The notes under the pieces: model-generated
The model's input: only the letters and a program-made list of their open reading frames with translations
What the model was told of the DNA's origin: nothing
Database searches by the model: none
Shown: positions 2,087-36,118 of the stretch, in pieces
How positions within the stretch are numbered: the stretch's first letter is position 1
Layout: every line of letters starts with the position of its first letter
Source of the DNA: Nemertoderma westbladi
Taxonomy: Eukaryota > Animalia > Xenacoelomorpha
Direction of reading: 5' to 3'
Assembly: GCA_032718475.1 (NCBI GenBank)
Contig: JAUCBJ010008266.1
Coordinates: 1 to 40,885 of the forward strand
DNA length: 40,885 bases
Program-made: the position numbers and the translations under genes

Positions 2087-3211
2087 TCATGTTGGTTCAG
2101 TTCGTACTGGAGAAGGTATGAGTTTGTTAAGTACAGCAGAAAGTAACTCTGTACAATTATCTGTAATAATTACCACTCGTGGACACAATGAGTGGAGGTT
2201 CATCACATCGTCCACAGATACACCACATCCCTCGATGTTGAGTCTACGTAATCGTTTCAGTTTGGATACACCCTTAAGGGCGATGTTAGTGAGGTCAGAG
2301 TGAGGTATATACAAAGTTACCAGGTTGGAACAACATTCTGTTATACTAATAATAGTAACTTCATCTATACAGCTAAGCTGTAATGTTGTTATTTGGGTAA
2401 ACTCAATTCCACTTGAAAAAACTGACCTCAACGTTTCTTTGTAACGATTTCTCATTTCAGTGATTTCCAAAGATGATAACGAAGGGGACAGTTGAGGAAG
2501 CCATTGCAGTAAAATCAAGATGATTTCTTCAGGAAATTCCTTTTGAAATTCGCTGTCAATTTTTATCTCCAACGGTACATGGGGGGATAAGCATTGGAAA
2601 GGGAACATACCCTTGTATGTTTCCATAATGTTAGATAATGTTGGTGTTTGTCTTGGAGCTCTCGAGCTTATTGGGTTTGGCACCTTCTGAGGATGACTAC
2701 TTGATATTTTTATTATATAATTCTTTATGTAATTCCATAATGAATTAATTCTACCGACTAAACTTGATACGTGTCGCGTTACTCTTAAATACGCCGTCGG
2801 TAGAGTTAATTGTCTGCGATATATATAAGAGGTAGAAAAGTAGAAGCCTCGCACCATTTGCTGCCACACAACCGTTGATATTCTACTCATCACAGGTGGA
2901 TTTGTGGTCGATATTATGAGTTTCTGAGTTCGAAGATTCAAGTCTAGTTGATTGTGGGCCAAAAGATAGGCGCGAATAACCTCCTTCCAAGAGTCGAGAC
3001 GAAGTTTAGGTGGCAAACTAGTCTCTAACCATCTGCTTAATATAGTGTCCTCTTGGTAATCTGTCGTTTGATTTCGTAACTTCCTAACTTCAGATTCCAC
3101 TATTACTTCAGCTAATACATGGGGCAGTAGGCTAATACAAAGTTCCCGTAGTGTTAGTGGTAAGTCATATCTTTTCTTCTCGAGTTCTTCTGAATATTTA
3201 TATTCGGACAT
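2087..3211 (-). CDS. Intronless 374-aa protein with an N-terminal BC-box-like motif and C-terminal leucine-rich repeats (candidate cullin-RING substrate receptor)
   Basis: Long ORF in AT-rich DNA. PLTLRELCISLL fits the BC-box pattern and LPPKLR is cullin-box-like. The C-terminus has LRR units: ITTLQLS, CSNLVTLYIPHSDLTNIALKGV, LKRLRRLNIEGCGVS. Confidence 0.7.
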   Translation of the reverse strand: MSEYKYSEELEKKRYDLPLTLRELCISLLPHVLAEVIVESEVRKLRNQTTDYQEDTILSRWLETSLPPKLRLDSWKEVIRAYLLAHNQLDLNLRTQKLIISTTNPPVMSRISTVVWQQMVRGFYFSTSYIYRRQLTLPTAYLRVTRHVSSLVGRINSLWNYIKNYIIKISSSHPQKVPNPISSRAPRQTPTLSNIMETYKGMFPFQCLSPHVPLEIKIDSEFQKEFPEEIILILLQWLPQLSPSLSSLEITEMRNRYKETLRSVFSSGIEFTQITTLQLSCIDEVTIISITECCSNLVTLYIPHSDLTNIALKGVSKLKRLRRLNIEGCGVSVDDVMNLHSLCPRVVIITDNCTELLSAVLNKLIPSPVRTEPT

Positions 3212-3348
3212 AGTGTATTCAATTAATTATTGTAAGATGAGGAAATTACTGAATAAATTTGAAAACATCAAATTAACTCGTTGGAGCTTATAATATAAAT
3301 ATGTAGACTTTGGCCTTTTAATCAAAGGCCACTATTTCCACTCCATTT

Positions 3349-3551
3349 GTCACCTTACCTTCCCATACCCCCTCACACTCCCTCTCATATGTTATCTACT
3401 TTCATGTGTTGGCCTACCATACATACACAATGTCCTGGAATATAGTTAACGACACTATATTCCAGGACATTGTGTATGTATGGTAGGCCAACACGTGAAA
3501 GTAGATAACATATGAGAGGGAGTGTGAGGGGGTATGGGAAGGTAAGGTGAC
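3349..3551. repeat. Near-perfect 98-bp inverted repeat with a 7-nt loop
   Basis: 3349-3446 is the reverse complement of 3454-3551 with one mismatch (catgtg/cacgtg). Loop is taacgac. Confidence 0.95.
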
Positions 3552-6807: not shown

Positions 6808-7746
6808 TCAATAAGCGAATCGCGAGTTTTTGTTGAAGCCGAGTTTCTCTAGATTAGGAATACAAGCGAAGTTCACCATGGGAGGCGGGCCGCACATCAG
6901 CACAATAGAGTCGTCGCCCGGGGAGGGGAGATGATCACGCAACATATCCTCGTTAATAAACCCCGAACTGTAAGCCCAGCCCGCGGTGGGACGGTCCACC
7001 GTGTACCACAGATGGAATCGGGTCGGATGCGCGGCCACCAGGTCCTCCAACTCATCTCGGAGGAGAATGTCCTCCTCGGTCTGGTTCGCGAACAGGAGCC
7101 ACATCTCGGAGGAGTCGGAAGGGCCTCTCTTTATAACATCTCGGATTATCTGTAACATCGGGGTGATCCCAGTTCCCCCGGCGATCAATCCCATTTTGGA
7201 GACGCTACGCTCCACTGGAGGCGACCTCTTATCCGCTTTTATATCAAACTTCCCGCCTCCTTTATAAAGAAGCAACCCAGAAGGTCCTCTAACATCTATA
7301 TAATCTCCTTTAGACATTGATTCCAAGTGTTGACTCATTTTCCCCCCGTTTGGAAACTTGGGGTGAACGTCTTTAAAGTAAACCTTAATGACTAATTCGA
7401 AGTATCCCTTATCGTCATCGCTAGTAACCGGGGTGTAAGGTCGAACTACTATCTCTCCGTTTATGCGGGCGGACAGGTAGATGTGTGCGCCTACAGGGAG
7501 GCCTAGCACGTGCTTCATCGAGGGGAGAGCGAATCGGAATCTGCGGGTATCGTGACTGACTACCTCGCTTTGGATGAGTTTAACCGGGTACTTTACTTGT
7601 GGGTCTTTGAGGAATACTTGTGTGTCTGGGCCGCGAGATTTACGGTACAAGGCGTAGACTACGAGCGCCGCTGCCGCTCCCACCACAACGGGTATCGCGG
7701 TACGTAGAAAGGTTACAGACGTTAAAAAGGAGTCTCTTTCCGCCAT
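6808..7746 (-). CDS. CYB5R3: NADH-cytochrome b5 reductase (CYB5R1/2/3 family), membrane-anchored, intronless
   Basis: N-terminal hydrophobic anchor; FAD motifs RPYTP and GGKMS; NADH motifs [19 protein letters not shown] and MCGPPPM. Full-length 312-aa ORF. The symbol is a family-level assignment. Confidence 0.95.
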
Positions 7747-7974
7747 GCTGCTACACCGGTATTCAATTCAAATAATGAATAATACAGAAATAGGTAGACC
7801 TACACCCTGACTCCAGGTACTGAGGTACTATAAACACAGATTACAGGAACAGAAGGGTTGAAACTTGAAACGAACCAAAACCGAAAACAATATACCGGTA
7901 CGGTCCGAATTGGTATGGACACTGGACAGGTTAAGAAAGAAATAATATATGCTAATATAATAATATATATCGTC

Positions 7975-9415: not shown

Positions 9416-12400
9416 CGAACCCTTTATTATGACCCGAACCCTTTATTATGACCCGAACCCTTTATTATGACCCGAACCCTTTATTATGACCCGAACCTTT
9501 ATTATGACCCGAACCCTTTATTATGACCCGAACCCTTTATTATGACCCGAACCCTTTATTATGACCCGAACCCTTTATTATGACCCGAACCCTTTATTAT
9601 GACCCGAACCCTTTATTATGACCCGAACCCTTTATTATGACCCGAACCCTTTATTATGACCCGAACCCTTTATTATGACCCGAACCCTTTATTATGACCC
9701 GAACCCTTTATTATGACCCGAACCCTTTATTATGACCCGAACCCTTTATTATGACCCGAACCCTTTATTATGACCCGAACCCTTTATTATGACCCGAACC
9801 CTTTATTATGACCCGAACCCTTTATTATGACCCGAACCCTTTATTATGACCCGAACCCTTTATTATGACCCGAACCCTTTATTATGACCCGAACCCTTTA
9901 TTATGACCCGAACCCTTTATTATGACCCGAACCCTTTATTATGACCCGAACCCTTTATTATGACCCGAACCCTTTATTATGACCCGAACCCTTTATTATG
10001 ACCCGAACCCTTTATTATGACCCGAACCCTTTATTATGACCCGAACCCTTTATTATGACCCGAACCCTTTATTATGACCCGAACCCTTTATTATGACCCG
10101 AACCCTTTATTATGACCCGAACCCTTTATTATGACCCGAACCCTTTATTATGACCCGAACCCTTTATTATGACCCGAACCCTTTATTATGACCCGAACCC
10201 TTTATTATGACCCGAACCCTTTATTATGACCCGAACCCTTTATTATGACCCGAACCCTTTATTATGACCCGAACCCTTTATTATGACCCGAACCCTTTAT
10301 TATGACCCGAACCCTTTATTATGACCCGAACCCTTTATTATGACCCGAACCCTTTATTATGACCCGAACCCTTTATTATGACCCGAACCCTTTATTATGA
10401 CCCGAACCCTTTATTATGACCCGAACCCTTTATTATGACCCGAACCCTTTATTATGACCCGAACCCTTTATTATGACCCGAACCCTTTATTATGACCCGA
10501 ACCCTTTATTATGACCCGAACCCTTTATTATGACCCGAACCCTTTATGTATGACCCGAACCCTTTAATATGACCCGAATCCTTTATTATGACCCGAATCC
10601 TTTATTATGACCCGAACCCTTTATTATGACCCGAACCCTTTAATATGACCCGAACCCTTTATTATGACCCGAACCCTTTATTATGACCCGAACCCTTTAT
10701 TATGACCCGAACCCTTTAATATGACCCGAACCCTTTATTATGACCCGAACTCTTTATTATGACCCGAACTCTTTATTATGACCCGAACCCTTTATTATGA
10801 CCCGAACCCTTTATTATGACCCGAACCCTTTATGTATGACCCGAACCCTTTAATATGACCCGAATCCTTTATTATGACCCGAATCCTTTATTATGACCCG
10901 AACCCTTTATTATGACCCGAACCCTTTATTATGACCCGAACCCTTTATTATGACCCGAACCCTTTATTATGACCCGAACCCTTTATTATGACCCGAACCC
11001 TTTATTATGACCCGAACCCTTTATGTATGACCCGAACCCTTTAATATGACCCGAACCCTTTACTATGACCCGAACCCTTTATTATGACCCGAACCCTTTA
11101 TTATGACCCGAACCCTTTATTATGACCCGAACCCTTTATTATGACCCGAACCCTTTATTACGACCCGAACCCTTTATTATGACCCGAACCCTTTATTACG
11201 ACCCGAACCCTTTATTATGACCCGAACCCTTTATTATGACCCGAACCCTTTATTATGACCCGAACCCTTTATTATGACCCGAACCCTTTATTATGACCCG
11301 AACCCTTTATTATGACCCGAACCCTTTATTATGACCCGAACCCTTTATTATGACCCGAACCCTTTATTATAACCCGAACCCTTTATTATGACCCGAACCC
11401 TTTATTATGACCCGAACCCTTTATTATGACCCGAACCCTTTATTATGACCCGAACCCTTTATTATGACCCGAACCCTTTATTATGACCCGAACCCTTTAT
11501 TATGACCCGAACTCTTTATTATGACCCGAACCCTTTATTATGACCCGAACTCTTTATTATGACCCGAACCCTTTATTATGACCCGAACCCTTTATTATGA
11601 CCCGAACCCTTTATTATGACCCGAATCCTTTATTATGACCCGAACCCTTTATTATGACCCGAACCCTTTATTATGACCCGAACCCTTTATTATGACCCGA
11701 ACCCTTTATTATGACCCGAACCCTTTATTATGACCCGAACCCTTTATTATGACCCGAACCCTTTATTATGACCCGAACCCTTTATTATGACCCGAACCCT
11801 TTACTATGACCCGAACCCTTTATTATGACCCGAACCCTTTATTATGACCCGAACCCTTTATTATGACCCGAACCCTTTATTATGACCCGAACCCTTTATT
11901 ATGACCCGAACCCTTTATTATGACCCGAACCCTTTATTATGACCCGAACTCTTTATTATGACCCGAACTCTTTATTATGACCCGAACCCTTTATTATGAC
12001 CCGAACCCTTTATTATGACCCGAACCCTTTATGTATGACCCGAACCCTTTAATATGACCCGAATCCTTTATTATGACCCGAATCCTTTATTATGACCCGA
12101 ACCCTTTATTATGACCCGAACCCTTTAATATGACCCGAACCCTTTATTATGACCCGAACCCTTTATTATGACCCGAACCCTTTATTATGACCCGAACCCT
12201 TTATTATGACCCGAACCCTTTATTATGACCCGAACCCTTTATTATGACCCGAACCCTTTATGTATGACCCGAACCCTTTAATATGACCCGAATCCTTTAT
12301 TATGACCCGAATCCTTTATTATGACCCGAACCCTTTATTATGACCCGAACCCTTTAATATGACCCGAACCCTTTATTATGACCCGAACCCTTTATTATGA

Positions 12401-13394
12401 CCCGAACCCTTTATTATGACCCGAACCCTTTATTATGACCCGAACCCTTTATTATGACCCGAACCCTTTATTATGACCCGAACCCTTTATTATGACCCGA
12501 ACCCTTTATTATGACCCGAACCCTTTATTATGACCCGAACCCTTTATTATGACCCGAACCCTTTACTATGACCCGAACCCTTTATTATGACCCGAACCCT
12601 TTATTATGACCCGAACCCTTTATTATGACCCGAACCCTTTATTATGACCCGAACCCTTTATTATGACCCGAACCCTTTATTATGACCCGAACCCTTTATT
12701 ATGACCCGAACTCTTTATTATGACCCGAACTCTTTTTATTATGACCCGAACCCTTTATTATGACCCGAACCCTTTATTATGACCCGAACCCTTTATGTAT
12801 GACCCGAACCCTTTAATATGACCCGAATCCTTTATTATGACCCGAATCCTTTATTATGACCCGAACCCTTTATTATGACCCGAACCCTTTAATATGACCC
12901 GAACCCTTTATTATGACCCGAACCCTTTATTATGACCCGAACCCTTTATTATGACCCGAACCCTTTATTATGACCCGAACCCTTTATTATGACCCGAACC
13001 CTTTATTATGACCCGAACCCTTTATGTATGACCCGAACCCTTTAATATGACCCGAATCCTTTATTATGACCCGAATCCTTTATTATGACCCGAACCCTTT
13101 ATTATGACCCGAACCCTTTAATATGACCCGAACCCTTTATTATGACCCGAACCCTTTATTATGACCCGAACCCTTTATTATGACCCGAACCCTTTATTAT
13201 GACCCGAACCCTTTATTATGACCCGAACCCTTTATTATGACCCGAACCCTTTATTATGACCCGAACCCTTTATTATGACCCGAACCCTTTATTATGACCC
13301 GAACCCTTTATTATGACCCGAACCCTTTATTATGACCCGAACCCTTTATTATGACCCGAACCCTTTATTATGACCCGAACCCTTTATTATGACC
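9416..13394 (+). repeat. 19-bp minisatellite, about 209 copies (GACCCGAACCCTTTATTAT)
   Basis: Read directly. The 5' part is nearly invariant and the 3' part has recurring variant blocks. Confidence 0.99.
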
Positions 13395-13984
13395 AAGAAC
13401 CCTTACAATTAGCCTTAGTTTATTTACCCTTACAATATTGTATTGTTGTCTGGGAATATATTATATAGAAACAAATATACATAGGTTAAGAAAAATAAAA
13501 TACTCAGATGTATCTCATTATTCTCAGATACTGTAGGTTAAGGCATTTGTTCCCGATATATAAGAGGTTAACAATTATGCATGTAAAACATGTATTGTAA
13601 AGTACAGTACTCTCTTCATGCACGGAATTCAATATGATGATTACTCATCCGATTTGGGTAGACTCTTCACCCTCGCGAGAGATGTACGCGCTTATATTAC
13701 TGTACACGTTCAACGGCAGTAAATAATTATTTTCTACGACGAAAAACTTAGTTGTAGGCCAGTCTTCAATTTCTTATTGAGGATCAGTGCTATGGAACTG
13801 TGTCCTTAAGCGATTTATTAAATACATATTAGCCTATTAGGCCTATTATTATAATATACTATATACGGTATATTAACTCCTTATATTAAAATGAAAGACA
13901 ATTATTTCAAAGAATGATGTATCTATTTTTAAACTCTCTACATTGTAAGATAGTCATTATATTTTTAATTTCATTAATTTTATC

Positions 13985-19189: not shown

Positions 19190-21810
19190 ACTGAAACCAG
19201 AAACAATCTGATGAAACGTTTAAGAGACCTTCGCGCAGTACAGCAGTATGTGGGATACTGAAACCATCTGTCTGTCTGTTGAAACGTTAAGGGTCCTTCA
19301 CGCAGTACTTGATCACAGAATCGTGAGATATTAAAACTATCTGTTCAATCATTTAAGAGTCCTTCGCGCAGTTTGTGGGATACTGAAACAATCTCTTGAA
19401 TCGTTTAAGAGTCCTTTGCCGCTTTGCGTAACGCGCAGTATGTGAGATACTGAAGAAACAATCTGTTGAATCGTTTAAGAGTCCTTCGCGTAACGCCCAA
19501 TATGCAGGATACTGAAATAATCTGTTAAATCGTTTAAGAGTCCTTCGCGTAACGCGCAATATGTGGGATACTGAAACAATCTATTGAAACGTTTAAGAGA
19601 CCTTTGCGCAATATGCAGGATACTGAAACAAACTGAAGAATCATTTAAGAGTCCTTCGCGTCACGCGCAATATGTAGGATACTGAAACAATATATTGAAA
19701 CGTTTAAGAGACCTTTGCGCAATATGCAGGATACTGAAACAAACTGAAGAATCGTTTAAGAGTCCTTCGCGTAACGTGCAATATGTGGGATACTGAAACA
19801 ATCTATGGAAACGTTTAAGAGACCTTTGCGCAATATGCAGGATACTGAAACAAACTGAAGAATCGTTTAAGAGTCCTTCACGTAACGCGCAATATGTGGG
19901 ATACTGAAACAATCTATTGAAACGTTTAAGAGACCTTTGCGCAATATGCAGGATACTGAAACAATCTGTTGAATCGTTTAAGAGTCCTTCGCGTAACCCG
20001 TAACACGCTATATGTGGGATACTGAAACAATCTATGGAAACGTTTAAGAGACCTTTGCACAATATGCAGGATACTGAAACAAACTGAAGAATCGTTTAAG
20101 AGTCCTTCGCACAATGCGCAGTATGTGGGATACTGAAACAATCTATTGAAACGTTTAAGAGACCTTTGCGCAATATGCAGGATACTGAAACAAACTGAAG
20201 AATCGTTTAAGAGTCCTTCGCACAATGCGCGGTATGTGGGATACTGAAACAATCTACTGAATCATTTAAGAGTCCTTCACGCAGTTTGTGGGATACTGAA
20301 ACAATCTGTTGATTCGTTTAAGAGTCATTCGTGTGATGCGCAATATGTGGGATACTGAAACAATCTATTGAAACGTTTAAGAGACCTTTGCGCAATATGC
20401 AGGATACTGAAACAAACTGAAGAATCGTTTAAGAGTCCTTCGCACAATGCGCGGTATCAGGGTATGTGGGATACTGAAACAATCTATTGAATCATTTAAG
20501 AGTCCTTCACGCAGTTTGTGGGATCCTGAAACAAACTGCTGAATCGTTTATAAGAGTCATTCACTCAGTACCTGAGATACTGATACAATCTGTTGAATCG
20601 TTTAAGAGTCCTTTTCACAGGATGTGGGATATTGAAACAATCTGTTGAATTGTTTAAGAGACTTTAGCGCAATATGTAGGTTACTGAAACAATCTGTTGA
20701 ATCGTTTAAGAGTCCTTCGCGTAACGCGCAGTATGTGGGATACTGAAACAATCTGTTGGATCCTTTAAGAGTCCTTCACGCAGTATGTGAGATACTGGAG
20801 TCCTTAGCACAATGCTCAGTATGTGGGATACTAAAACAATCTATTGAAACGTTTAAGAGTCCTTTGCGCAATATGCAGGATACTGAAACAAACTGTCAGG
20901 ACTGTTGAATCGTTTAAGAGTACTTTCCATGACGCGCAGTATGTGGCATGTGGGATGCTGAAACAATAATGTAGAATTGTTTGAGTCCTTCGCGTAATGC
21001 GCAGTATGTGGGATACTGAAACAATCTATTGAAACGTTTAAGAGACATTTGCGCAATATGCAGGATACTGAAACAAACTGTTGAATCATTTAAGAGTCCT
21101 TCAAGCAATATGCAGGATAGTGAAACAATCTATTGATTCGTTTAAGAGTCCTTTGCATAATGCGTAGTATGTGGGATACTGAAATAATCTATTGAATCGT
21201 TTAAGAGACCTTTGCGCAATATGCAGGATTCGGAAACTAACTGTTGAATCGTTTAAGAGTCCTTTGCATAACGCGCAGTATATGGGATATATACTGAAGC
21301 AATCTGTTGAATTCTTTAGGAGTCATTCACGAACAAGCAGTATATGGGAATGGGATATATACTGAAACAATCTGTTGAATCATTTATGAGTCCTTCACGC
21401 AGTACATGAGGTATTGAATCAAACTGTTGAATTGTTTAAGAGTCCTTCACGCAATGCGCAGTATGTGGGATACTGAAACAATCAGTTGAATCATTTAGGA
21501 GTCCTTTGCGCAGTTTGTGGGATACTGAAACAATCTGTTGAATCGATTAAGAGTCCTTCACGCAGTAAATGAGATACTGAAACAATCTGTTGAAACGCTT
21601 GAGTCCTTCGCCCAACACGCACTATGTGGGATACTGAAACAATCTATCTGTCTATTGAACCGTTTAAGAGTCCTTCGCGCAGTTTGTGGAATACTGAACA
21701 GCTGAAACAATCTGTTGAATCGTTTAAGAGTAATTCACGCAGTACATGAAATACTGAAACAAGAGAGTCCTTTGCACAGTATGTGGGATACTGAAACAAT
21801 CAGTTGAAAC
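19190..21810 (+). repeat. Diverged satellite of 52- and 59-bp monomers with a 111-bp dimer core
   Basis: GATACTGAAACAA..GTTTAAGAG(T/A)CCTT recurs, e.g. at 19567, 19619 and 19678. A/B alternation is regular over ~19560-20460 and the edges are decayed. Confidence 0.95.
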
Positions 21811-23136: not shown

Positions 23137-23376
23137 ATTCATTATAGCCAGTTATATTAGATTACTAGTAAAATTAACAACTTTTTATACCTGATGGCAC
23201 AAGTAATAAGTTTCCCAGTTCCCCATGTCAAGGATACTTGGGCCTCATCAGTTTTAAAAAAATCGTATTAGCTTTCTGACAACAGAAGGTTAACTAACTC
23301 AAGCAAACTAAGAAAATATGTATTCTAATAGGTCTGATAAGCACAACAATAGCTTTAATTTAATAAAGCTGTGTTA

Positions 23377-23761: not shown

Positions 23762-24901
23762 GAACACAACCTGCAGTATTGATAATGCGAATTAATTAAA
23801 CTGTAGTATTTGCAGTTCTGAACTATTGTTTATAATCCCTGTGCAATGATTCTAGAATGATAGATAATATGAATCTCCAAGAAATTTTAATTATTTTGTA
23901 AATTTAATACCGGTGGTACTAATAAGAGACTATAGAGTTTGTCCCGCAAAATTTGATGCAGTATTTTATTTTACCTAGGTATTTCTCACGTTGAAATATG
24001 AACGGAAATACAATGTATTGGTTTAACCCCGAAACTTATCTGATTAAAAATTATGCGAAAATTGCAAACGGTAGAACAGGGAATATAATATTACGTATTT
24101 ACATTATTACCTATTTATTGCAGATAGCCAATATTGGGTGGGACACTGACCTTATTAAATTAAAAGGATAGTTAATGGGTAAACAGATTACATGGTAGCC
24201 CCCCAGTACCTTTTCTGGTGCTCAAACACACATTTGCCGGTTGGAAGACCGGCGCTATAACCACCTGGCCCACTCATAAACAAACGCCTAATCCAGTAAA
24301 CCAGTAACCATTTAGGCATAATACTTAATTAGTTTCTATCCCATTATGGGTTAATGGCAATACTTAAACATTAGGCCTAGTTGATATAAATAGGTTATAT
24401 AAATACGGGTTATACTGTATACTGATATATATAGTACCATGAGAGCGGTTATTAGCCAATATGCCTAGATATAATGAATAGGTACCGGTAACTGAAAACA
24501 AACAACTAAACAGATCTAACAACCCTTTAATAACGTAAAGTAAATAAAAAAAAACAATAGATACAAGTTTCGAGAACGAGAAGGGCATAAGGAAGTTGAG
24601 CTGCGGGGAATGTCACGATTGGGGTACCGGTACCTATAAATTTAATGCAAAGTACAGAAGTATTTACAGTAGTGGCGGTCTAAACCCCAATTAAAACTGT
24701 CATGTAACCCTAACCCTAACACATAATCTAATATATAGTAAGCATTTGTTGTGTACTAAAAATATATAGATCATATGGGTTTCTCGTTTTATACCTCGAC
24801 ATATAGAACTCTATAGAACTCTGTTACTGTACTTGGCCGAACACATGCAATAACCAAGCCAACACACAACATTTATATAAATATATATGTTTAATTATCA
24901 G

Positions 24902-25901
24902 GTCAAGTTCTCGAATGTTCCCAGCTGAACGACATCCGATACGGGGGGATTCCGCGAGACGCCAAGCAGCGGGTCGATCTGGAGGCGAGGCAATCCGACC
25001 TTGACGACAAGTCCTTCACGGTGTGCAGCGGCCTGGACCTGGTCAACATCACGTCGACCCACTTCGTAGCGGCGAACAACGAGACCCAGAAGAAATGGGT
25101 CAAGGGCCTCCGCAGGATAACCCACAACTACAAAGCCAACAACATCTGCCCCACGAAGCAGCTCAAGAAGCACTGGATGCGAATACAATACTCGGTGAAC
25201 GCGGACGGCCGGATCCCCGTGCGGAGTATAACCCGCACCTTCGCGTCCGGAAAGGCCGAGAGACTCCTATTCAAATCGCTCCAAGAATTGGGTCTACCCA
25301 ACGGGAAGAACGACGACATCAGTGTGGACGACTTCACCCTCGAGAAGTTCTACCAGCTTTATCATATAATCTGCCCGCGTTCCGATCTAGAGCATTTGTT
25401 TAACCAGTACAGTTCGGGGACACCCGCTGTGTTAACTCTCGCGAAAATGTGCGAGTTCCTAAACGATAAACAGCGGGATCCCCGGTTGAACGAGATCCTC
25501 TTCCCGTTCTGGACTAAACAGAAGGTGCGGGAGTGGATCATACAGCGGTACGAGACCGACAAGTTGAGCATCGAGCGGGACGAGATCTCCTTCGACGGCT
25601 TCGTCAACTACCTCATGTCGGACGACAACTGCCCCGTGTTCCTCGACCGGCTGGACATCTACCAGGAGATGGACCAGCCCCTCTCCCACTACTACATCAA
25701 CTCGTCGCACAACACCTACCTCGTGGGCCGCCAGTTCGGCGGCAAGTCCGCCGTCGATATGTACCGGCAGGTCCTCCTCTCCGGATGCCGTTGCGTCGAA
25801 CTCGATTGTTGGGACTCCAAGGGCGGCGACGAACCCATTATCACGCACGGGAAGGCCATGTGTACCGACATTCTATTTAAAGACGTTATTCACGCTATAA
25901 G
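24902..25901 (+). CDS. PLCB4: PLC beta exon 2 (PH, EF-hand region, start of X domain)
   Basis: Acceptor cag|gt. Contains [29 protein letters not shown] and EPIITHG with both catalytic histidines. Donor AG|gtgagt is phase 2. Confidence 0.95.
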
Positions 25902-28050
25902 GTGAGTCCTTAGTATGTTTCATTATATATAATTACTCATCCGAAATGGCACTTGGAATCAAGTTTCATGAAAAATCACACAAATCGCAGCAGCATATAA
26001 AAATATTCAGGCTACTTCTAGCGATCTGCGTGATAAACTACAATGTTGTTTCGTGAATTTCCATTACGACTTAAACTTCCTTCCCAAATCGTTTAATTTC
26101 TCTTTAAACTCGTGATTGCTTAGTGCCTCCGGTGTATTTTATATTTGTTTACATTCTGTGGACCGAATGAATTTGGACCTGCGCTCAAATTCAACACCAT
26201 TTATTTACCGTATACACAATCTACCATACTATGGCTAATCGTGGAGACAGCCCTGTGAGAAACCTCTTCCCAATAACTGCTTCCCGAAAAATCCATCTAA
26301 AATATTCGCTTTTCTCAGTAAAACTTGTAAAAAACTTCAATTATTGAACTACCAGAAGGTTTAAAATTAAATAACAACCGGTATTAACGTTGCATGCAAA
26401 CAGTGATCAGCTGGCTGAAGGAACGTGATTGGCCCAAGTTTATGGTGCTGCTTCCCAGCGGTTAGTTTGTCTGCGTACGTACGTACAATATGCATCTTGC
26501 TTCGTTTTATTGCCTCTATTTTTCCGTTTGGTATCTCACTCTACTCTATTGTAGTTTCCTGGATGGCCTGCGCTGTGCGCGCCGTGTCGCATACAGCGCG
26601 TCGGCCGGATGCCGATGAAGTGTCTACGGAAGGTTACTTTCTACTTAACCTGTACCTTGCTGCTCTTATTGCTGTTTAAATGGGGGTCCAATAGTTTACG
26701 AATCCTTTCAAGCTGTCAGTAAGATAGAATAGCGTTATCACTAACTATGAAACATTTGTAGTGCACTTTATTCTCAGCCGGCAAGGTAAAGTCGCCTTAC
26801 ATCCTAAAGGCGTTAGTTCTGGGGAATGTTAGGTCCTATTGCAACAAACTTGGCGTTAATTAATAGACGGTTACATTACATTTATTGTTAAGATTATACA
26901 ATTTGCTGTAGTTAATAGCCGTGGTTGTGCCGTTAATTACTCTGGTCTTGTATACAAACACAGTGGCTGAATCCTGAAGGTCGTTTATTTTTTTGTTATT
27001 AATTTAAACATCGTAATATTGGTAGTAGTGGGTGCGGGTGGAGAGACTAATAAAGGTTGTTCTAAAAATAGTATAATAATATTGTGGAAGGTCGTATATG
27101 ACTTTGGGTTGAACCAACGCGGCACTACTGTAGTCAGTATCGCGATATCAGGTTCACCCACTGCCGCCTGAGACTGTCTATATTCAATTATTCAGGTAGG
27201 ATGGCGGGATCTCTGGACTGGATGCCATCAAAATCTATCCCTTATAGGAAAATCGACGCAAATAGATTACATATATAACTTTAACCTGTTCTATGGACTT
27301 TATTTTATTGTTTTGATTAGAATAAGTGGCACAGTAATAACCTCATCTCCTTTCCCTGGTGACCTAACGGAACACTGTCTGTCCTACCTGTCTGTGTGTG
27401 TGTTTACTATAGTTTACAAACAGTCACACTCAATATATTATGTATTTATTCATCCATAGGTTATCCAACGAAGTATAAATCTACATTAGGTATAGAGGTA
27501 CTCCACCCTCCCCCCTCCCCTCCATGTCATATTCTCAGAGGAATTGTAATGTATAGTTTAAGGTTTCGATAACAATTCATTTTACTTATATCCGTGGATG
27601 TGTCATTCTTTCTGATTGAATATTAATCGAGCATTTTCTGATGACTTTACTGGCTAGCTTTTCGCCTTTATAAATTTAACAATACCGGTACTTATTAATT
27701 AAATGTATATGGTATGCCTTAGCTAATGCTGCTATTTATATTTTAAATGTAAGCTAAATTCTAACTTAATGGGATCACCCCTACTTTGAAAGTGACCCAA
27801 AGGGTGACTTAAGGTTGAGGCCAGCCTGTGCGTCACCGATTTGTTTTCTAATATCAAACAATTTCTAATTCGAATATATTTTATATCGGATTATATCGGT
27901 ATGTCGTTATAAAGTAATATATTATTTAACCCATTTTCATTCATATGACACTGTTGGCATAAGGTCTAATCTAATCAGTCACAAATTTGTAATACGTTAC
28001 TCAACTTAGTTGTGAGTAAATTATAAGCGGTCGTTGTTTATAGCAAGGCA

Positions 28051-28801
28051 ACTGGCTTTGTGTCTCTCCCAGACCGTTGTAGCCAGGTTGTAGTGGTTGT
28101 AAACCATAAGTTACTGGCTTTGTGTCTCTCCCAGACCGTTGTAGCCAGATTGTAGTGGTTGTAACCTTAAGTTGCTGGATTTGTGTCCCCCATGTCGTTG
28201 TAGCCAGGTTGTAGTGGTTGTAAACCATAAGTTACTGGCTTTGTGTCGCTCCCAGGCCGTTGTAGCCAGGTTGTAGTGGTTGTAAACCATAAGTTACTGG
28301 CTTTGTGTCTCTCCCAGGCCGTTGTAGCCAGGTTGTAGTGGTTGTAAACCATAAGTTACTGGCTTTGTGTCTCTCCCAGGCCGTTGTAGCCAGGTTGTAG
28401 TGGTTGTAAACCATAAGTTACTGGCTTTGTGTCTCTCCCAGGCCGTTGTTGCCAGGTTGTATTGGTTGTAAACCATAAGTTACTGGCTTTGTGTCTCTCC
28501 CAGGCCGTTGTAGCCAGGTTGTAGTGGTTGTAAACCATAAGTTACTGGCTTTGTGTCTCTCCCAGGCCGTTGTAGCCAGGTTGTAGTGGTTGTAAACCAT
28601 AAGTTACTGGCTTTGTGTCTCTCCCAGGCCGTTGTAGCCAGGTTGTAGTGGTTGTAAACCATAAGTTACTGGCTCTGTGTCTCTCCCAGGCCGTTGTTGC
28701 CAGGTTGTATTGGTTGTAAACCATAAGTTACTGGCTTTGTGTCTCTCCCAGGCCGTTGTAGCCAGGTTGTAGTGGTTGTAAACCATAAGTTACTGGCTTT
28801 G
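28051..28801 (+). repeat. 62-bp minisatellite, about 12 copies, in PLC intron 2
   Basis: Unit gttactggctttgtgtctctcccaggccgttgtagccaggttgtagtggttgtaaaccataa. Confidence 0.98.
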
Positions 28802-29484
28802 CCACCATATCCATTATCCACTAATCGGAGCAAATGGCGAGATAATCTCTTTCAGTTATCGATTCGGTAAAGAAACGTACTGAATTACGCGATCAAATGC
28901 TATTTATTGTTCCCAAGGGGGAAATATAATTATTTAGCATTCTTTAGAATTGCAATATGCATGCATGCGAGTGCGAGACCACGTATATAGCCAGAGTGCT
29001 AACACCTTCAATGAGATGTGCACTTTAAACTACATCAAAGTTTGCAAGGTTTGCGAAAGTTTGCCAAAGCATCCTTCTCCCAAGTTGTATAAAATATACC
29101 TTTAATCCACTTTATAAATATTTTCAGCTATACTGATGTCTAATAAATACTTCAACCTAAAAATGTTACTTGTTTTTGTCTTTATAATCTCAACTTATAA
29201 GATGAGATTCTTAATATACTTATGCCTTACATTGTTCGTACGAACATACACAACATACTCATTTTATGTTCGATGCGTGTAACTGTAAACCAAGGTGTGC
29301 TAAATAACTATATTAGTAGATTATTATTACTACTTTTATTATTATTATTATTATTGATTATTATTATTATTAGATCATTATTACTACAATTAGTAGACCT
29401 TGGTACAAACATACATGTATTATATAGGATTATAGGTACATAAACGATATTCTAGAACTAATTATTTTTTTCTCTTGTTACTAG

Positions 29485-30883
29485 GGATACGGCTTTCGTC
29501 ACTTCAGATTTCCCTGTTATATTGTCCTTCGAGAACCATTGCTCCAAACCAATGCAACTGAAGATGGCCCAGTACTGTGAGGAAATATTCGGAGACCTGT
29601 TACTGAAGGATCTTCTACCGAACTTCCCGATCGCTCCCAATGTGGCGCTCCCGCCGCCAAACGCGCTCCGACGTAAGATCTTAATAAAAAACAAACGGCT
29701 GAACCCGGACGTGGAGCGGATCCAGTTGGAAGCCTACAGGAAGGGGCAGATGCTGTTGGAAGACGCGGAGGCAGCTGATAACCCCGAGGTCGTAGTCGAC
29801 AACCTGGAGGAGGCCCACCCCGAGATGAAACCTGTGGTCGCGGAGAAGAAAGAGGAGGAAGAAACCACTGAGGAGGACCCCCAGGCGGCGTTCGAGAGTT
29901 ACGTGTACCGCGGCGCGACGACCAACATCCACCCGCTCCTCTCCTCGCTCGTAAACTACGCCCAACCGGTCAAGTTCAGCGGTTTCGACGTCGCCGAAGA
30001 CAAGAACATCAACCACAACATGAGCAGCTTCGCGGAGACCAGCGCGATCGCCTTGCTCAAGACCTCCTGCATCGAGTTCGTCAACTACAACAAGCGCCAA
30101 CTCAGTCGGATCTACCCCAAAGGCAACCGGGTCGACTCCAGCAACTACATGCCGCAGATCTTCTGGAACACCGGCTGCCAGATGGTCTCGCTCAACTTCC
30201 AGACGCCGGACCTCGCCATGCAGCTGAATGCCGGCAAGTTTGAGTACAACGGAAACTGCGGTTACCTACTCAAGCCGGAGTTTATGCGACGCAAGGATCG
30301 CACGTTCGACCCGTTCTCGGAGACCCCGGTGGACGGCGTGATCGCGGCCCACTGCTCGGTGCAGGTTGTCTCGGGTCAGTTCCTCTCCGACAAGAAGATC
30401 GGCACCTACGTGGAGGTCGACATGTACGGACTGCCTACTGACACGATCAGGAAGGAGTTCCGCACACGGATGGTCCCCGGGAACGGACTCAACCCGCAGT
30501 ACAACGAGGAGCCCTTCGTGTTCCGCAAGGTCGTGCTCCCGGATCTCGCGGTCCTCCGGGTGGCCGTCTACGACGAGAACAACAAGATGATCGGGCAGCG
30601 AATCCTCCCTTTGGAGGGCCTCCAGGCCGGTTACCGACACGTGAGTCTGCGCACCGAGGGTAACTTCCCCCTCTCCCTCCCCACTATACTCTGCTGCATC
30701 GTGCTGAAGACTTACGTCCCCGACGGGTTCGGCGACTTCGCCGAGGCGCTCAGCTCGCCGCTCGCCTTCCTCTCCCAGGCCGAGAAGCGGGCCAAGCAAA
30801 TGGAAGCGATGGGGGTGGATGAGGCGGACGCTAACGTCAGCGTAACAAGCGTGGGTACCGGGAAGAAACGGGACCTTAAAAAG
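29485..30883 (+). CDS. PLCB4: PLC beta exon 3 (end of X, acidic X-Y linker, Y, C2, proximal CTD)
   Basis: Acceptor tag|G restores [20 protein letters not shown]. Contains [16 protein letters not shown] and [20 protein letters not shown]. Donor AAG|gttggt is phase 0 and matches exon 4. Confidence 0.93.
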
Positions 30884-31223
30884 GTTGGTAATCACGTGAT
30901 ATTATTAGGGTTCTCTATAAAATCCGGAAGTGACGTCATAAATTGTAATTTAAGTTTATTAAAAAGTTACTTGTGACTTCCTTTTACATAACAGTAAAAA
31001 TTAAAGTTAACCATATCCGATTGTGACCTCTTAATGTGAATAAACATAAAACAATTGGTTTCAATTTTTAATTTTTATAAATAAATTGGAGTTGAGCTGT
31101 TATTGCAACAAATTGTAATTAAAGGTGTAATATTATGGTTTTGTTCAGAAATATAAAAAATGAGAAAGCGCGTCACCGGCAGAAATATAAAAAATGAGAA
31201 AGCGCGTCACCGGGGTTTGAACC

Positions 31224-31269
31224 ATCGCTATACGTACGTTTCAGCCTATCAGGCCTCATCAGTAGCGCT
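31224..31269 (-). ncRNA. Minimal type I hammerhead ribozyme
   Basis: Minus strand reads AGCGCUA-CUGAUGA-GGCCU-GAU-AGGCU-GAAA-CGUACG-UA-UAGCGAU: stem I, conserved core, stem II, short palindromic stem III and a GUA cleavage triplet. Confidence 0.85.
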
Positions 31270-31634
31270 AACCAGTTCAGCCACGTGTCCCTGACATTCA
31301 CTATCCCACCTAATCCACTTTTATTGAACAGGCAGTCTTAAGTTGCATATCCTATCTCTAACAGCGGACCTACCGGCCTCAAGTATGTTAGAGTGAAACA
31401 GGAGGAAAGTACAAATAAATAAATATACAGCTCGGGTATTGCTGCCAGGATATATTATATAAATAAATTGGAGATGTGCTGTTAATGCAACTGTAATTAA
31501 AGATGTAATATTATGGGTTTGTTCAGAGGTGGAAAAAATGAGAAAGCGCGTCACCGGGGGTTGAACAGGCAGTCTTAAGCGACTGCCTGTTCAATAAAAG
31601 TAGATTAGGTGGGATAGTGAATATCAGGGACAAG

Positions 31635-31729
31635 TGGCTGAACTGGTTAGCGCTACTGATGAGGCCTGATAGGCTGAAATGTACGTATAGCGCTGGTTCA
31701 ACCCCCGGTGACGCGCTTTCTCATTTTTT
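31635..31729 (+). promoter_or_regulatory. Pol III type 2 promoter-like A and B boxes and T6 terminator around the hammerhead
   Basis: TGGCTGAACTGG (31635-31646), GGTTCAACCCC (31695-31705) and TTTTTT (31724-31729). The motifs are mirrored in the minus copy. Confidence 0.6.
31649..31694 (+). ncRNA. Minimal type I hammerhead ribozyme (sense to the PLC pre-mRNA)
   Basis: AGCGCUA-CUGAUGA-GGCCU-GAU-AGGCU-GAAA-UGUACG-UA-UAGCGCU. Stem I is a perfect 7 bp. Predicted cleavage is after A31687. Confidence 0.82.
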
Positions 31730-33377
31730 CCATTTCTGAACAAAACCATAATATTACATCTTTAATTTTTATTGCAGTGGCCCCAAGATTTGTCATGACG
31801 TCATAATTGTAGGTCGGTATTAAACTGGACGCAGTGAGCAATGACGTCAATCGCGTATTTGACGTTTACAATGTTTATTAATTTATTTTTAGTGACTCTT
31901 TTTATGGCTCATTTTATTTCCCTTGCTTGCCCGTCACAATTGTTGCTGCCCAATCTGCCCACGTCATTCAACTTTGATGTAATTTATTTTTCAGGCTGTA
32001 ATATAGATTACTGATCAAAGGCTATTATTTCTCTATTATAAATTCATTAAATCTACAATGAGGGAATTATTTCATTTCTAAAGCCTTTAATGAGACGGTA
32101 ATTCATACACTAACCATATGGCTTGTTATCAACATAGGTTGTATAGTATACCCTGGCCCAATCTGCCCCCCCCCCCCCCCCCCCACCCTTCGTAATAATT
32201 ACCATACCGCGGGTCGCGTCAATAATACCCCTCATGTTATACGGCCGGATTCACCCGAATAAAACCAAGCCATAGTGACATAATTACCCACCGGTAGGTA
32301 TACTCCTACCTGTAGGGATAGGCGCAGTGTTTTCGCGCGAGTTTTAATGAAACAAGAAAGATTTGATGACAGGCGAGAAAGAATATTGGATGCGATGAAT
32401 TATGGCGTTTGTGTGCTGGATAAGTTAACGCGCGCCGGTAAGCTTAGCCCAAAGGGCAGTGTGCATTGATTCGTACTTCCTTGGTAATCATACAGTCCTT
32501 CCTTTAGGATATACTGTCTTACATCGGAGCTTCCAGCATCGACAATAATGGTAGCATGTCTTACTGTGTTCAGATTTTCAGCTAATTTATCACTCTTTGT
32601 ACCTGGTATTACCCGCCAAAATTATTAATCTCTTGCGTTGGATAAATACACAGTTGGATATGCCCGTCTAGCATGTAGGGCGTAGGCAGACATTATATGT
32701 GGGGTGGGGCATTACGCAGACAATCATTATGTACACGTTGTTTGCAAACAGTACACGACCGACAATCCAAGATGGACGACTTTATTATCACGGTCTTCTA
32801 CTTTATACCACTGACTGCTGCTTTACATCACGCACTACTACTTTAAACCACTGACTGCTACTTTACCCCACTGACTGCTGCTTTACATCACGGGCTACTA
32901 TGTGTATGTTTGTATTTATAGACCATAAATGAATAACAAAAATAACACATAATTAAATAAACAATTGAATCTGAACATAGTCTTGCGAAGAGATAATTTT
33001 TACAGATGATTCAGACAATTGATATTTACAGTTGAACTGATGATACGGACACACATGATACAAGACATGCAGTATATGGGACATTCGAAGGCCGCAACAC
33101 AGTCGAATAGACATAGAGCAAACAACACGGTGGACTGAACATACCGATATAAACAAACAACAATGTGAAATAAACAATCAAACATTATACTAGACGTAGA
33201 AGAGGAAGTATCTACCATGGGCAAAGTCAACAAAAAGACAAACAACAGATTACAAAGTCAACAAAGAGATAAACAACAGATTACCAAGTCAACATAGAGA
33301 CAAACAACATATTATTACATATTATTATCAATGATGTCAATAATCATTAATGGAGTCTTGCATGATGATCACGTCAT

Positions 33378-33650: not shown

Positions 33651-33739
33651 ATACTTACCTATGCGTAAATAAATTTCTGTACACACATAAATTAATACTT
33701 ACATATGTATAAATATGTTTCCGTACACACATAAATTAA

Positions 33740-36023
33740 CTACATTACACTACGGACTTGTTACTTTACACCACTGACTACAACTACATAACAATACGAA
33801 CTTGCTACTTTACACCACTGACTACAACTACATAACAATACGGACTTGCTACTTTACACCACTGACTACAACTACATAACAATACGGACTTGCTACTTTA
33901 CACCGCAGACTACAACTACATAACACTACGGACTTGCTACTTTACACCACTGACTACAACTACATAACAATACGGACTTGCTACTTTACACCACTGACTA
34001 CAACTACATAACACTACGGACTTGCTACTTTACACCACTGACTACAACTACATAACACTACGGACTTGCTACTTTACACCACTGACTACAACTACATAAC
34101 AATACGGACTTGCTACTTTACACCGCAGACTACAACTACATAACACTACGGACTTGCTACTTTACACCACTGACTACAACTACATAACAATACGGACTTG
34201 CTACTTTACACCACTGACTACAACTACATAACACTACGGACTTGCTACTTTACACCACTGACTACAACTACATAACAATACGGACTTGCTACTTTACACC
34301 ACTGACTACAACTACATAACAATACGGACTTGCTACTTTACACCACTGACTACAACTACATAACAATACGGACTTGCTACTTTACACCACTGACTACAAC
34401 TACATAACAATACGGACTTGCTACTTTACACCGCAGACTACAACTACATAACACTACGGACTTGCTACTTTACACCACTGACTACAACTACATAACAATA
34501 CGGACTTGCTACTTTACACCACTGACTACAACTACATAACAATACGGACTTGCTACTTTACACCACTGACTACAACTACATAACAATACGGACTTGCTAC
34601 TTTACACCACTGACTACAACTACATAACAATACGGACTTGCTACTTTACACCGCAGACTACAACTACATAACACTACGGACTTGCTACTTTACACCACTG
34701 ACTACAACTACATAACAATACGGACTTGCTACTTTACACCACTGACTACAACTACATAACAATACGGACTTGCTACTTTACACCGCAGACTACAACTACA
34801 TAACACTACGGACTTGCTACTTTACACCACTGACTACAACTACATAACAATACGGACTTGCTACTTTACACCACTGACTACAACTACATAACAATACGGA
34901 CTTGCTACTTTACACCACTGACTACAACTACATAACAATACGGACTTGCTACTTTACACCGCAGACTACAACTACATAACACTACGGACTTGCTACTTTA
35001 CACCACTGACTACAACTACATAACAATACGGACTTGCTACTTTACACCACTGACTACAACTACATAACAATACGGACTTGCTACTTTACACCACTGACTA
35101 CAACTACATAACAATACGGACTTGCTACTTTACACCGCAGACTACAACTACATAACACTACGGACTTGCTACTTTACACCACTGACTACAACTACATAAC
35201 AATACGGACTTGCTACTTTACACCGCAGACTACAACTACATAACAATACGAACTTGCTACTTTACACCACTGACTACAACTACATAACAATACGGACTTG
35301 CTACTTTACACCACTGACTACAACTACATAACAATACGGACTTGCTACTTTACACCGCAGACTACAACTACATAACACTACGGACTTGCTACTTTACACC
35401 ACTGACTACAACTACATAACAATACGGACTTGCTACTTTACACCACTGACTACAACTACATAACAATACGGACTTGCTACTTTACACCACTGACTACAAC
35501 TACATAACAATACGGACTTGCTACTTTACACCGCAGACTACAACTACATAACACTACGGACTTGCTACTTTACACCACTGACTACAACTACATAACAATA
35601 CTAACTTGCTACTTTACACCACTGACTACAACTACATAACAATACGGACTTGCTACTTTACACCACTGACTACAACTACATAACAATACGGACTTGCTAC
35701 TTTACACCGCAGACTACAACTACATAACACTACGGACTTGCTACTTTACACCACTGACTACAACTACATAACAATACGGACTTGCTACTTTACACCACTG
35801 ACTACAACTACATAACAATACGGACTTTCTACTTTACACCACTGACTACAACTACATAACACTGCGGACTTGCTACTTTACACCACTGACTACAACTACA
35901 TAACACTACGGACTTGCTACTTTACACCACTGACTACAACTACATAACAATACGGACTTGCTACTTTACACCACTGACTACAACTACATAACACTACGGA
36001 CTTGCTACTTTACACCACTGACT
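33740..36023 (+). repeat. 44-bp minisatellite, about 52 copies, in PLC intron 3
   Basis: Unit cggacttgctactttacaccactgactacaactacataacaata, with a recurring ccgcag/aacacta variant. Confidence 0.99.
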
Positions 36024-36118
36024 AGTGACTACCGCAATACACCACTACTGACTACTGCATTGCATTACACCAAAGAAATTGAAAAAACTAATTCCAATAC
36101 CCCAGCCATGATGTTTAT

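Follow-up and report, generated by a model that had tools for sequence, protein, structure and literature searches.

The window analysed here, a 40,885-nucleotide stretch of the Nemertoderma westbladi genome, contains a hammerhead ribozyme motif enclosed by a tRNA-type A box and B box and followed by a run of six T residues (T6), an arrangement that raises the question of what kind of element carries it and how that element spreads. The reading we consider probable is a single insertion of a tandem repeat with a 348-bp unit and a high copy number, likely a non-LTR retrozyme of young age that owes its movement to Penelope-like element (PLE) enzymes, in which a predicted hammerhead lies between A and B boxes that are likely tRNA-derived and are predicted to pair with each other. 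The motifs, the 348-bp period, the high copy number, and the anatomy of tandem, inverted, and tail segments are directly established.

A predicted type I hammerhead

Every motif named in a preliminary description of the locus was recovered in place when the sequence was checked. The ribozyme core (CUGAUGA, helix II, GAAA, helix III, and GUA) occupies 31656..31687 on the plus strand, with CTGATGA at 31656-62, GAAA at 31676-79, and GTA at 31685-87. The helix I 5′ strand at 31650..31655 pairs with 31688-31693 (pair probabilities 0.56-0.97), the 3′ strand together with U1.7 at 31694 covering 31688..31694, and helix II (31663-75) has 4 bp and a five-base loop with A as its last base. U1.7 and this A fit what we take to be the usual hammerhead loop contact. 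A CUGANGA, GAAA, and UH core, three helices, and an open helix I, as expected of the type I form, are all present. The helix sizes (6 bp for helix I, 4 bp for helix II, and 2 bp plus a palindromic loop for helix III) match the canonical metazoan type I proportions in the compared part of PMC4209133 and not the minimal PLE form. The portion of PMC6155905 consulted mentions a conserved reverse Hoogsteen pair in the hammerhead and says no more about it. A descriptor requiring the core, a helix I of 6 bp, and a helix II of at least 4 bp matched once in the real window and in none of 150 block-shuffled windows. Rfam lent no support, with neither a hammerhead nor a tRNA among the three unrelated matches at E ≤1 or the three at E ≤10. 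Sequence and fold nevertheless support a genuine type I hammerhead, with cleavage predicted after 31687. A further CTGATGA at 23251 on the minus strand was rejected as a hammerhead, being without stems.

The second cassette of A box, hammerhead, and B box that had been reported on the minus strand is real (31213..31283; A box at 31283, core from 31262, and predicted cut after 31231). It fails the descriptor because helix I is damaged by a mismatch at 31225, where ~98% of the family depth has the pairing letter. Family letters were obtained by placing on the locus contigs from four DNA runs (X1-X4, representing at most three samples, with X1 and X3 from the same one), from any of which the window itself may come. 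Sites that vary inside the hammerhead include 31669 in loop II, 31683 in loop III, and 31675, at the G-U/G-C pair. The G-U pair closing stem II, raised earlier as a caveat, is present in the copies but is a minority allele in the family, since C at 31675, giving a G10.1-C11.1 pair, accounts for 66, 64, 55, and 77% of the depth in X1-X4. The minus copy and 92-99% of the family depth carry a perfect 8-mer palindrome at helix III (31679..31686), and 31680 T>C is found at 99, 99, 99, and 92% of the depth in X1-X4. The palindrome is a predicted dimer contact, with a duplex energy of −9.8 kcal/mol when perfect versus −6.2 in the 31574..31767 copy; the helix III pair probability in the RNA monomer is 0.0.

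tRNA-type boxes and a candidate terminator

The A box TGGCTGAACTGG lies at 31635..31646 on the plus strand, corresponding to tRNA positions 8-19, and the B box GGTTCAACCCC at 31695..31705, corresponding to 52-62. Each doubles as one strand of a distal helix I, GAAC at 31640-43 supplying the 5′ strand and GTTC at 31696-99 the 3′ strand. T6 (31724..31729), a candidate Pol III terminator, is the only run of at least four T on the sense strand of the 348-bp unit; depletion of other T4 runs in the unit is not significant (393 of 3000 shuffles). Its spacing is tRNA-gene-like, with a 7-nt trailer after position 73, and places it 36 nt past the predicted cut. The earlier claim that the boxes resemble those of tRNA genes stands beyond chance: when the 348-nt unit was dinucleotide-shuffled 20000 times, strict consensus patterns never gave an A and B pair 30-70 nt apart and loose ones gave it 28 times, and all 10 of the invariant positions named in the part of PMC1693877 consulted (8, 14, 18, 19; 53-56, 58, 61) are present. 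In viral contigs, a pattern built from the 16-nt A segment and a B box matched 88 times; 85 of these matches fall inside ARAGORN tRNAs, one of which carries a 16-mer identical to the A segment of the element; this pattern favors tRNAs by design, and the matched tRNAs are viral-contig ones picked by it. The 16-nt A segment therefore represents a full D-arm signature. It is likely, judged from these motifs, that the A and B boxes derive from a tRNA gene, and the odds that they still recruit Pol III appear about even. The boxes are correctly spaced but are internal to the unit and not at any 5′ end seen.

No tRNA fold accompanies the boxes. Poor pairing of the T-stem and acceptor stem had been anticipated and was confirmed (T-stem probability 0.00; acceptor strands unpaired), whereas the GCT/AGC D-stem proposed at the same time uses the same bases as helix I and has a pair probability of at most 0.01. 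The placement of the hammerhead at the anticodon-arm position thus holds for the linear order but not for a folded cloverleaf. A tRNA gene was rejected on the same grounds, and ARAGORN found 0 genes. Among the viral-contig matches, L046, L082, and L095 have A-to-B spans of 66-76 nt instead of 53 and are possibly tRNA-like genes with expanded anticodon arms.

The viral, metagenome, and prokaryote collections searched for relatives contain little animal DNA. Viral contigs gave no match to either of two family patterns or to both boxes plus a downstream CGGTG, and 21 viral-contig matches to a loose pattern of core plus B box were judged by eye to be chance. Metagenomes gave no match to the strict family pattern and at least 117 to the loose one; among the matches listed, 1 of 117 has a helix I of at least 4 bp and a helix II of at least 3 bp, and 0 of 117 has an upstream A box. 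A single pattern match in GTDB was without stems.

A predicted rod that outruns the cassette

When family-majority letters are used, 31588..31742 on the plus strand is predicted to fold into a ~155-nt rod that carries the hammerhead at the tip; the rod begins 40 nt before tRNA position 1 and ends 13 nt beyond T6. The fold of 31586-31745 has an energy of −62.8 kcal/mol (z −4.6, 0 of 300 shuffles) with six majority letters (five taken from variant table rows and that at 31602 inferred from the minus copy) versus −45.7 for the natural sequence, and the 17.1 kcal/mol gain was matched by 1 of 1000 random sets with the same substitution types. The circular monomer likewise folds at z −2.5 with majority letters (2 of 100 shuffles) versus +0.3 for the natural sequence. 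Over the 103-nt cassette, natural copies fold no better than shuffles (z −0.19); with majority letters, helices I and II form in the short RNA with probabilities of 0.84-0.92 and 1.0. Family variation is compatible with the predicted fold. Among 15 minor alleles, 5 break rod pairs (one of them at the rod edge, so that the count is 4 or 5), 5 keep them, and 5 are unpaired, and compensatory double changes amounting to true covariation were not established among these alleles. With the rod outrunning the cassette at both ends, structural selection likely acts on an RNA longer than the Pol III cassette.

In the long context, the A-box GAAC is predicted to pair with the B-box GTTC at a probability of 0.99, and an upstream GTTCA was rejected as a rival partner for the A box (probability ≤0.01). 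This pairing bears on a simpler account, in which the element is a retrozyme transcribed by read-through only and the A and B motifs are by-products of a paired rod or remnants of a dead tRNA. All box bases and T6 are paired in the rod, where GAAC needs GTTC and U-runs pair with purines, and distal helix I has a probability of only 0.05-0.08 in RNAs starting at 31625-28; a Pol III RNA would be without the 5′ strand of a rod that begins 40 nt upstream of tRNA position 1. T6 would in addition block Pol III monomers, and the unpaired acceptor and T stems, with no tRNA model match, suit a remnant. Box spacing that shuffling rarely or never reproduced, the complete set of invariant positions, the D-arm signature of the A segment, and the lack of an upstream A box among the listed metagenome matches to core plus B box argue against by-products, and hammerhead repeats of Pol III type have a precedent in the schistosome Sm-alpha element. 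We regard this account as doubtful.

Anatomy of the insertion

The insertion spans 31073..31767, as delimited by self-BLAST and contig depth, and consists of a minus-strand partial tandem followed by a head-to-head inverted copy. It sits in an intron of a PLC-beta gene, downstream of a plus-strand exon encoding X, Y, and C2 domains (29462..30883, with the donor site read from the sequence), and the plus copy of the hammerhead unit is sense to the PLC-beta pre-mRNA. PLC-beta is coded in two unusually long exons (24895-25905 and 29462-30883), and the intron splits the X domain. On the minus strand, self-BLAST and alignment delimit a full 348-bp period at 31213..31560; a partial unit without a hammerhead (31455..31570), joined through GTTCAA microhomology, adjoins the inversion junction. 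Since this second minus unit contains no hammerhead, there is one hammerhead per strand, and the locus falls outside the "active" class of Li et al. (bioRxiv 10.64898/2026.07.22.740005), which, in the part consulted, calls for two consecutive hammerheads. The inverted copy holding the plus cassette (31574..31767) is 5′-truncated, is without a tail, and has 94% identity to 31342-31180 on the minus strand. A tail of ~40 bp (40-44 bp; 31073..31116, minus strand) is found only at one of the insertion's two ends. Tandem Repeats Finder (TRF) also reported a 34-bp tandem duplication, including T6, at 31146..31213. Loose ends behind 31767 continue into the tail in 49, 43, 37, and 10 contigs of X1-X4, and the tail joins the head of the next unit directly, at the 348-bp period and with no coding sequence between. 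No ORF of at least 100 codons overlaps the insertion, no partner PLE was seen, no A-tail or target duplication was seen at its junctions, and no empty site was seen in the X1-X3 contigs over the locus.

A partial tandem, an adjoining inverted and truncated copy, and a tail at one end only are the features described for PLE insertions, whose adjoining inverted copy is 5′-truncated and whose tail measures 30-40 bp (PMC8557442, part consulted); that tail has been tied to two reverse transcriptase (RT) start sites in an AC-rich region (PMC11167929, part consulted). Loose 3′ ends here fall into two classes ~40 nt apart, one at 31743-59 and the other, on the minus unit, near 31460, resembling those two start sites. 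The likeness to the pseudo-LTR (pLTR) hammerheads of PLEs in the compared parts of PMC4209133, PMC8557442, and PMC11167929 extends to an AT-rich target, an AC-rich 3′ region, and a palindromic helix III. With this tandem, inverted, and tail anatomy, the unit could be the pLTR of an autonomous PLE, present here as truncated fragments, the more so as truncated PLEs carry opposite-strand hammerhead pairs 100-700 bp apart (PMC4209133, part consulted). The run of the tail straight into the next head, the lack of an ORF, and a hammerhead of canonical and not minimal form make this origin improbable; the tRNA-type boxes also set the unit apart from pLTRs.

Copy number and sequence variation

Summed contig depth is 1e4-1e5 over the unit (with one bin at ~600) versus 4-21 on the flanks in X1-X3, which place 3629, 1999, and 2315 contigs over the locus, and high depth spans all of 31076-31780. 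Depth itself is not a copy number, but when divided by word length it points to several hundred copies or more. What is amplified is the full 348-bp unit and not the cassette alone. The loose 3′ ends listed for X1-X3 lie mostly past T6, at 31743-31767, with one group at 31729 in X3.

Sixteen sites vary at ≥2% in X1. Using depth-weighted contig shares of this one run and borders set post hoc, and leaving out the edge zones 31580-614 and 31734-70 together with two sites private to the window, 1 of 34 sites varies in the fixed hammerhead, 1 of 29 in the boxes and T6, 2 of 10 in the loops, and 10 of 41 in the flanks (one-sided Fisher test versus flanks, p 0.008 for the hammerhead and p 0.016 for the boxes and T6). 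Both inner changes are tolerated ones. The sole variable site of the A box, 31642 A/G, is permitted by box and helix alike, whereas 0 of 11 B-box sites, 0 of 6 T6 sites, and no site in the helix I 5′ strand vary. The expectation that the boxes are more conserved than their flanks is in line with this contrast, although the dropped edge zones at face value hold 0 variable sites and would weaken it; they were dropped because another depth analysis has strong variants at the equivalent positions 31321, 31330, and 31503. The cassette at 31633-31711 is the least variable part tested, with 3 of 78 sites varying versus 11 of 39 (p 0.002), and a repeat family carrying the cassette, as had been proposed, is borne out by these few changes. 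Both boxes and T6 are fully paired within the rod, and their conservation thus cannot tell promoter from structure.

The X4 rows of depth 1108, assigned to one contig by inference from their equal depth, show a 4-nt insertion with a matching helix I change, unchanged boxes and core, about eight changes within 31708-24, and a retained T5. Although X4 carries the same species label, its contigs over 30700-32100 cover the exon and the repeat only, at far lower relative depth, and it is possibly a divergent lineage with a smaller and partly different family.

The preliminary description had seen in the locus an independent Pol III SINE-ribozyme of ~100 nt that is itself the mobile unit, and a spacing of the two boxes and T6 that resembles a tRNA gene, the low variability of the cassette, and the formation of helices I and II in a short RNA accord with it, but amplification of the whole 348-bp unit, 3′ ends mostly past T6, a rod that exceeds the cassette at both ends, PLE-type insertion, and junctions without an A-tail or target duplication make that model very improbable. 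A conventional tRNA-derived SINE layout was likewise rejected, in view of an amplified unit that extends upstream of the boxes, the tandem and inverted anatomy, and the missing target duplication.

Comparison with known ribozyme-bearing elements

The element has the non-coding tandem unit, type I hammerhead, and many copies that mark a non-LTR retrozyme, and its 348 bp falls within the 150-450 bp range given for retrozyme units (PMC7229834, part consulted). In the parts of PMC7229834 and bioRxiv 10.64898/2026.07.22.740005 compared, metazoan non-LTR retrozymes share with the element a non-coding tandem unit, a canonical type I hammerhead, a palindromic helix III, a GC content below 50%, high copy number, a self-paired predicted monomer, and a proposed dependence on PLEs. 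They differ in that A and B boxes or a Pol III terminator are not described for them in the main text of Cervera and de la Pena 2020 (PMC7229834) as far as compared, and in that circles are for the 348-bp unit a predicted fold only.

A precedent for a hammerhead combined with a Pol III-like promoter, as the preliminary description had noted, is Sm-alpha of schistosomes. Sm-alpha and Sj-alpha of Schistosoma are ~335-bp repeats with a tRNA-type promoter and a type I hammerhead, and for Sm-alpha a multimer cleavage model and a promoter-then-hammerhead order have been described (PMC6765202, part consulted); their promoter is of tRNA-Gln origin (PMC2770079, part consulted). In Sm-alpha t-2 (X15618.1, positions 54-335; supplement of PMC8490949), the B box precedes the core by ~40 nt, with an intact anticodon-arm region, and the 282 nt visible contain no T4 run, as judged by eye. 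In the 348-bp unit, by contrast, the hammerhead replaces the anticodon-arm region, the predicted cut separates the two boxes, which are predicted to pair as distal helix I, and T6 comes 36 nt past the cut. An Sm-alpha-type element with a complete promoter upstream of the hammerhead was accordingly rejected, and the nested layout is new relative to Sm-alpha, whose hammerhead lies downstream of the B box. A second promoter-then-ribozyme case is schistosome W25.2 (visible part of PMC8490949 supplementary figure 5), in which a tRNA-like head is directly followed by a hammerhead-like core.

Two further elements offer partial parallels, as far as their sources were compared. Pr77/L1TcRz of Trypanosoma cruzi also uses one sequence as internal promoter and ribozyme, but its ribozyme is HDV-like and cuts at its own 5′ edge, and it belongs to a LINE system (PMC3383444). 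The Helenus and Cassandra TRIMs have likewise taken tRNA A and B boxes into a non-SINE retroelement, and the Helenus box motifs TRGCY, YGG, and GGTTC are all matched in the 348-bp unit; Helenus differs in being an LTR element for which a ribozyme is not described there (PMC10886601). The nested order of box, hammerhead, and box was not found in the literature compared, which covered parts of the main text of PMC7229834. The element is an undescribed-looking repeat family akin to retrozymes and Sm-alpha-type elements, and the nested layout is its new part.

Proposed mechanism of spread

For a retrozyme moved by a PLE, the reading that we favor, long RNAs would run through tandem units, made either by host Pol II or by Pol III leaking past T6. 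Folded into the ~155-nt rod, these RNAs would be cut after GUA into 348-nt monomers or circles, and dimer pairing via the helix III palindrome would probably assist the cleavage. At AC-rich sites that lie 55-120 nt downstream of the cut, the PLE reverse transcriptase/endonuclease would begin to copy, and it would insert tandem and inverted copies in AT-rich DNA. T6 would end most Pol III RNAs at ~100 nt, and such an RNA would not be the spreading template because it ends upstream of most genomic 3′ ends. Since the predicted cut falls within the promoter, an intact A-B pair would be rebuilt only from templates that are uncut, circular, or multimeric.

A more elaborate version, which we hold to be unlikely, makes the element dual-coded, with the boxes acting as a live Pol III promoter in DNA and as the distal hammerhead helix in RNA. 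Hundreds or more copies would then yield the ~100-nt Pol III RNA, which could trigger cleavage in trans, through the helix III palindrome, of long RNAs that bear a copy, including host pre-mRNAs such as that carrying the PLC-beta intron, and the cut between the boxes would leave only circles or multimers able to regenerate the promoter.

Transcription of animal retrozymes is called intense in the literature compared, which leaves the polymerase unnamed apart from Pol III for Sm-alpha and Pol II for newt satellite 2. The family offers a compact test of retrozyme transcription, since a strand swap in distal helix I can uncouple promoter from ribozyme. If the boxes are active, the element's own ribozyme would split its promoter, and the element would suggest a possible route from tRNA gene to retrozyme; if they are inactive, it would be an ordinary retrozyme family, not described before, that bears clear marks of PLE-type insertion.

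Other features of the window

At 5886-5700 on the minus strand, a tRNA-like head has loose A and B boxes at a spacing of 54 nt and runs into unrelated sequence; it resembles an ordinary tRNA-derived SINE. A near-perfect 36-bp hairpin at 3406-3494, whose microRNA model matches fall below gathering scores, is probably a MITE-like inverted repeat. Two intronless frames lie on the minus strand, one of 379 codons without a Pfam match (2087-3226) and one for an NADH-cytochrome b5 reductase with a best database identity of only 70% (6808-7767), a value that points to an invertebrate animal lacking closely related annotated species. Long minisatellite arrays occupy 9416-13404, 19422-21800, 28051-28801, and 33738-36024, with periods of 19, 111/52, 62, and 44 bp, respectively.
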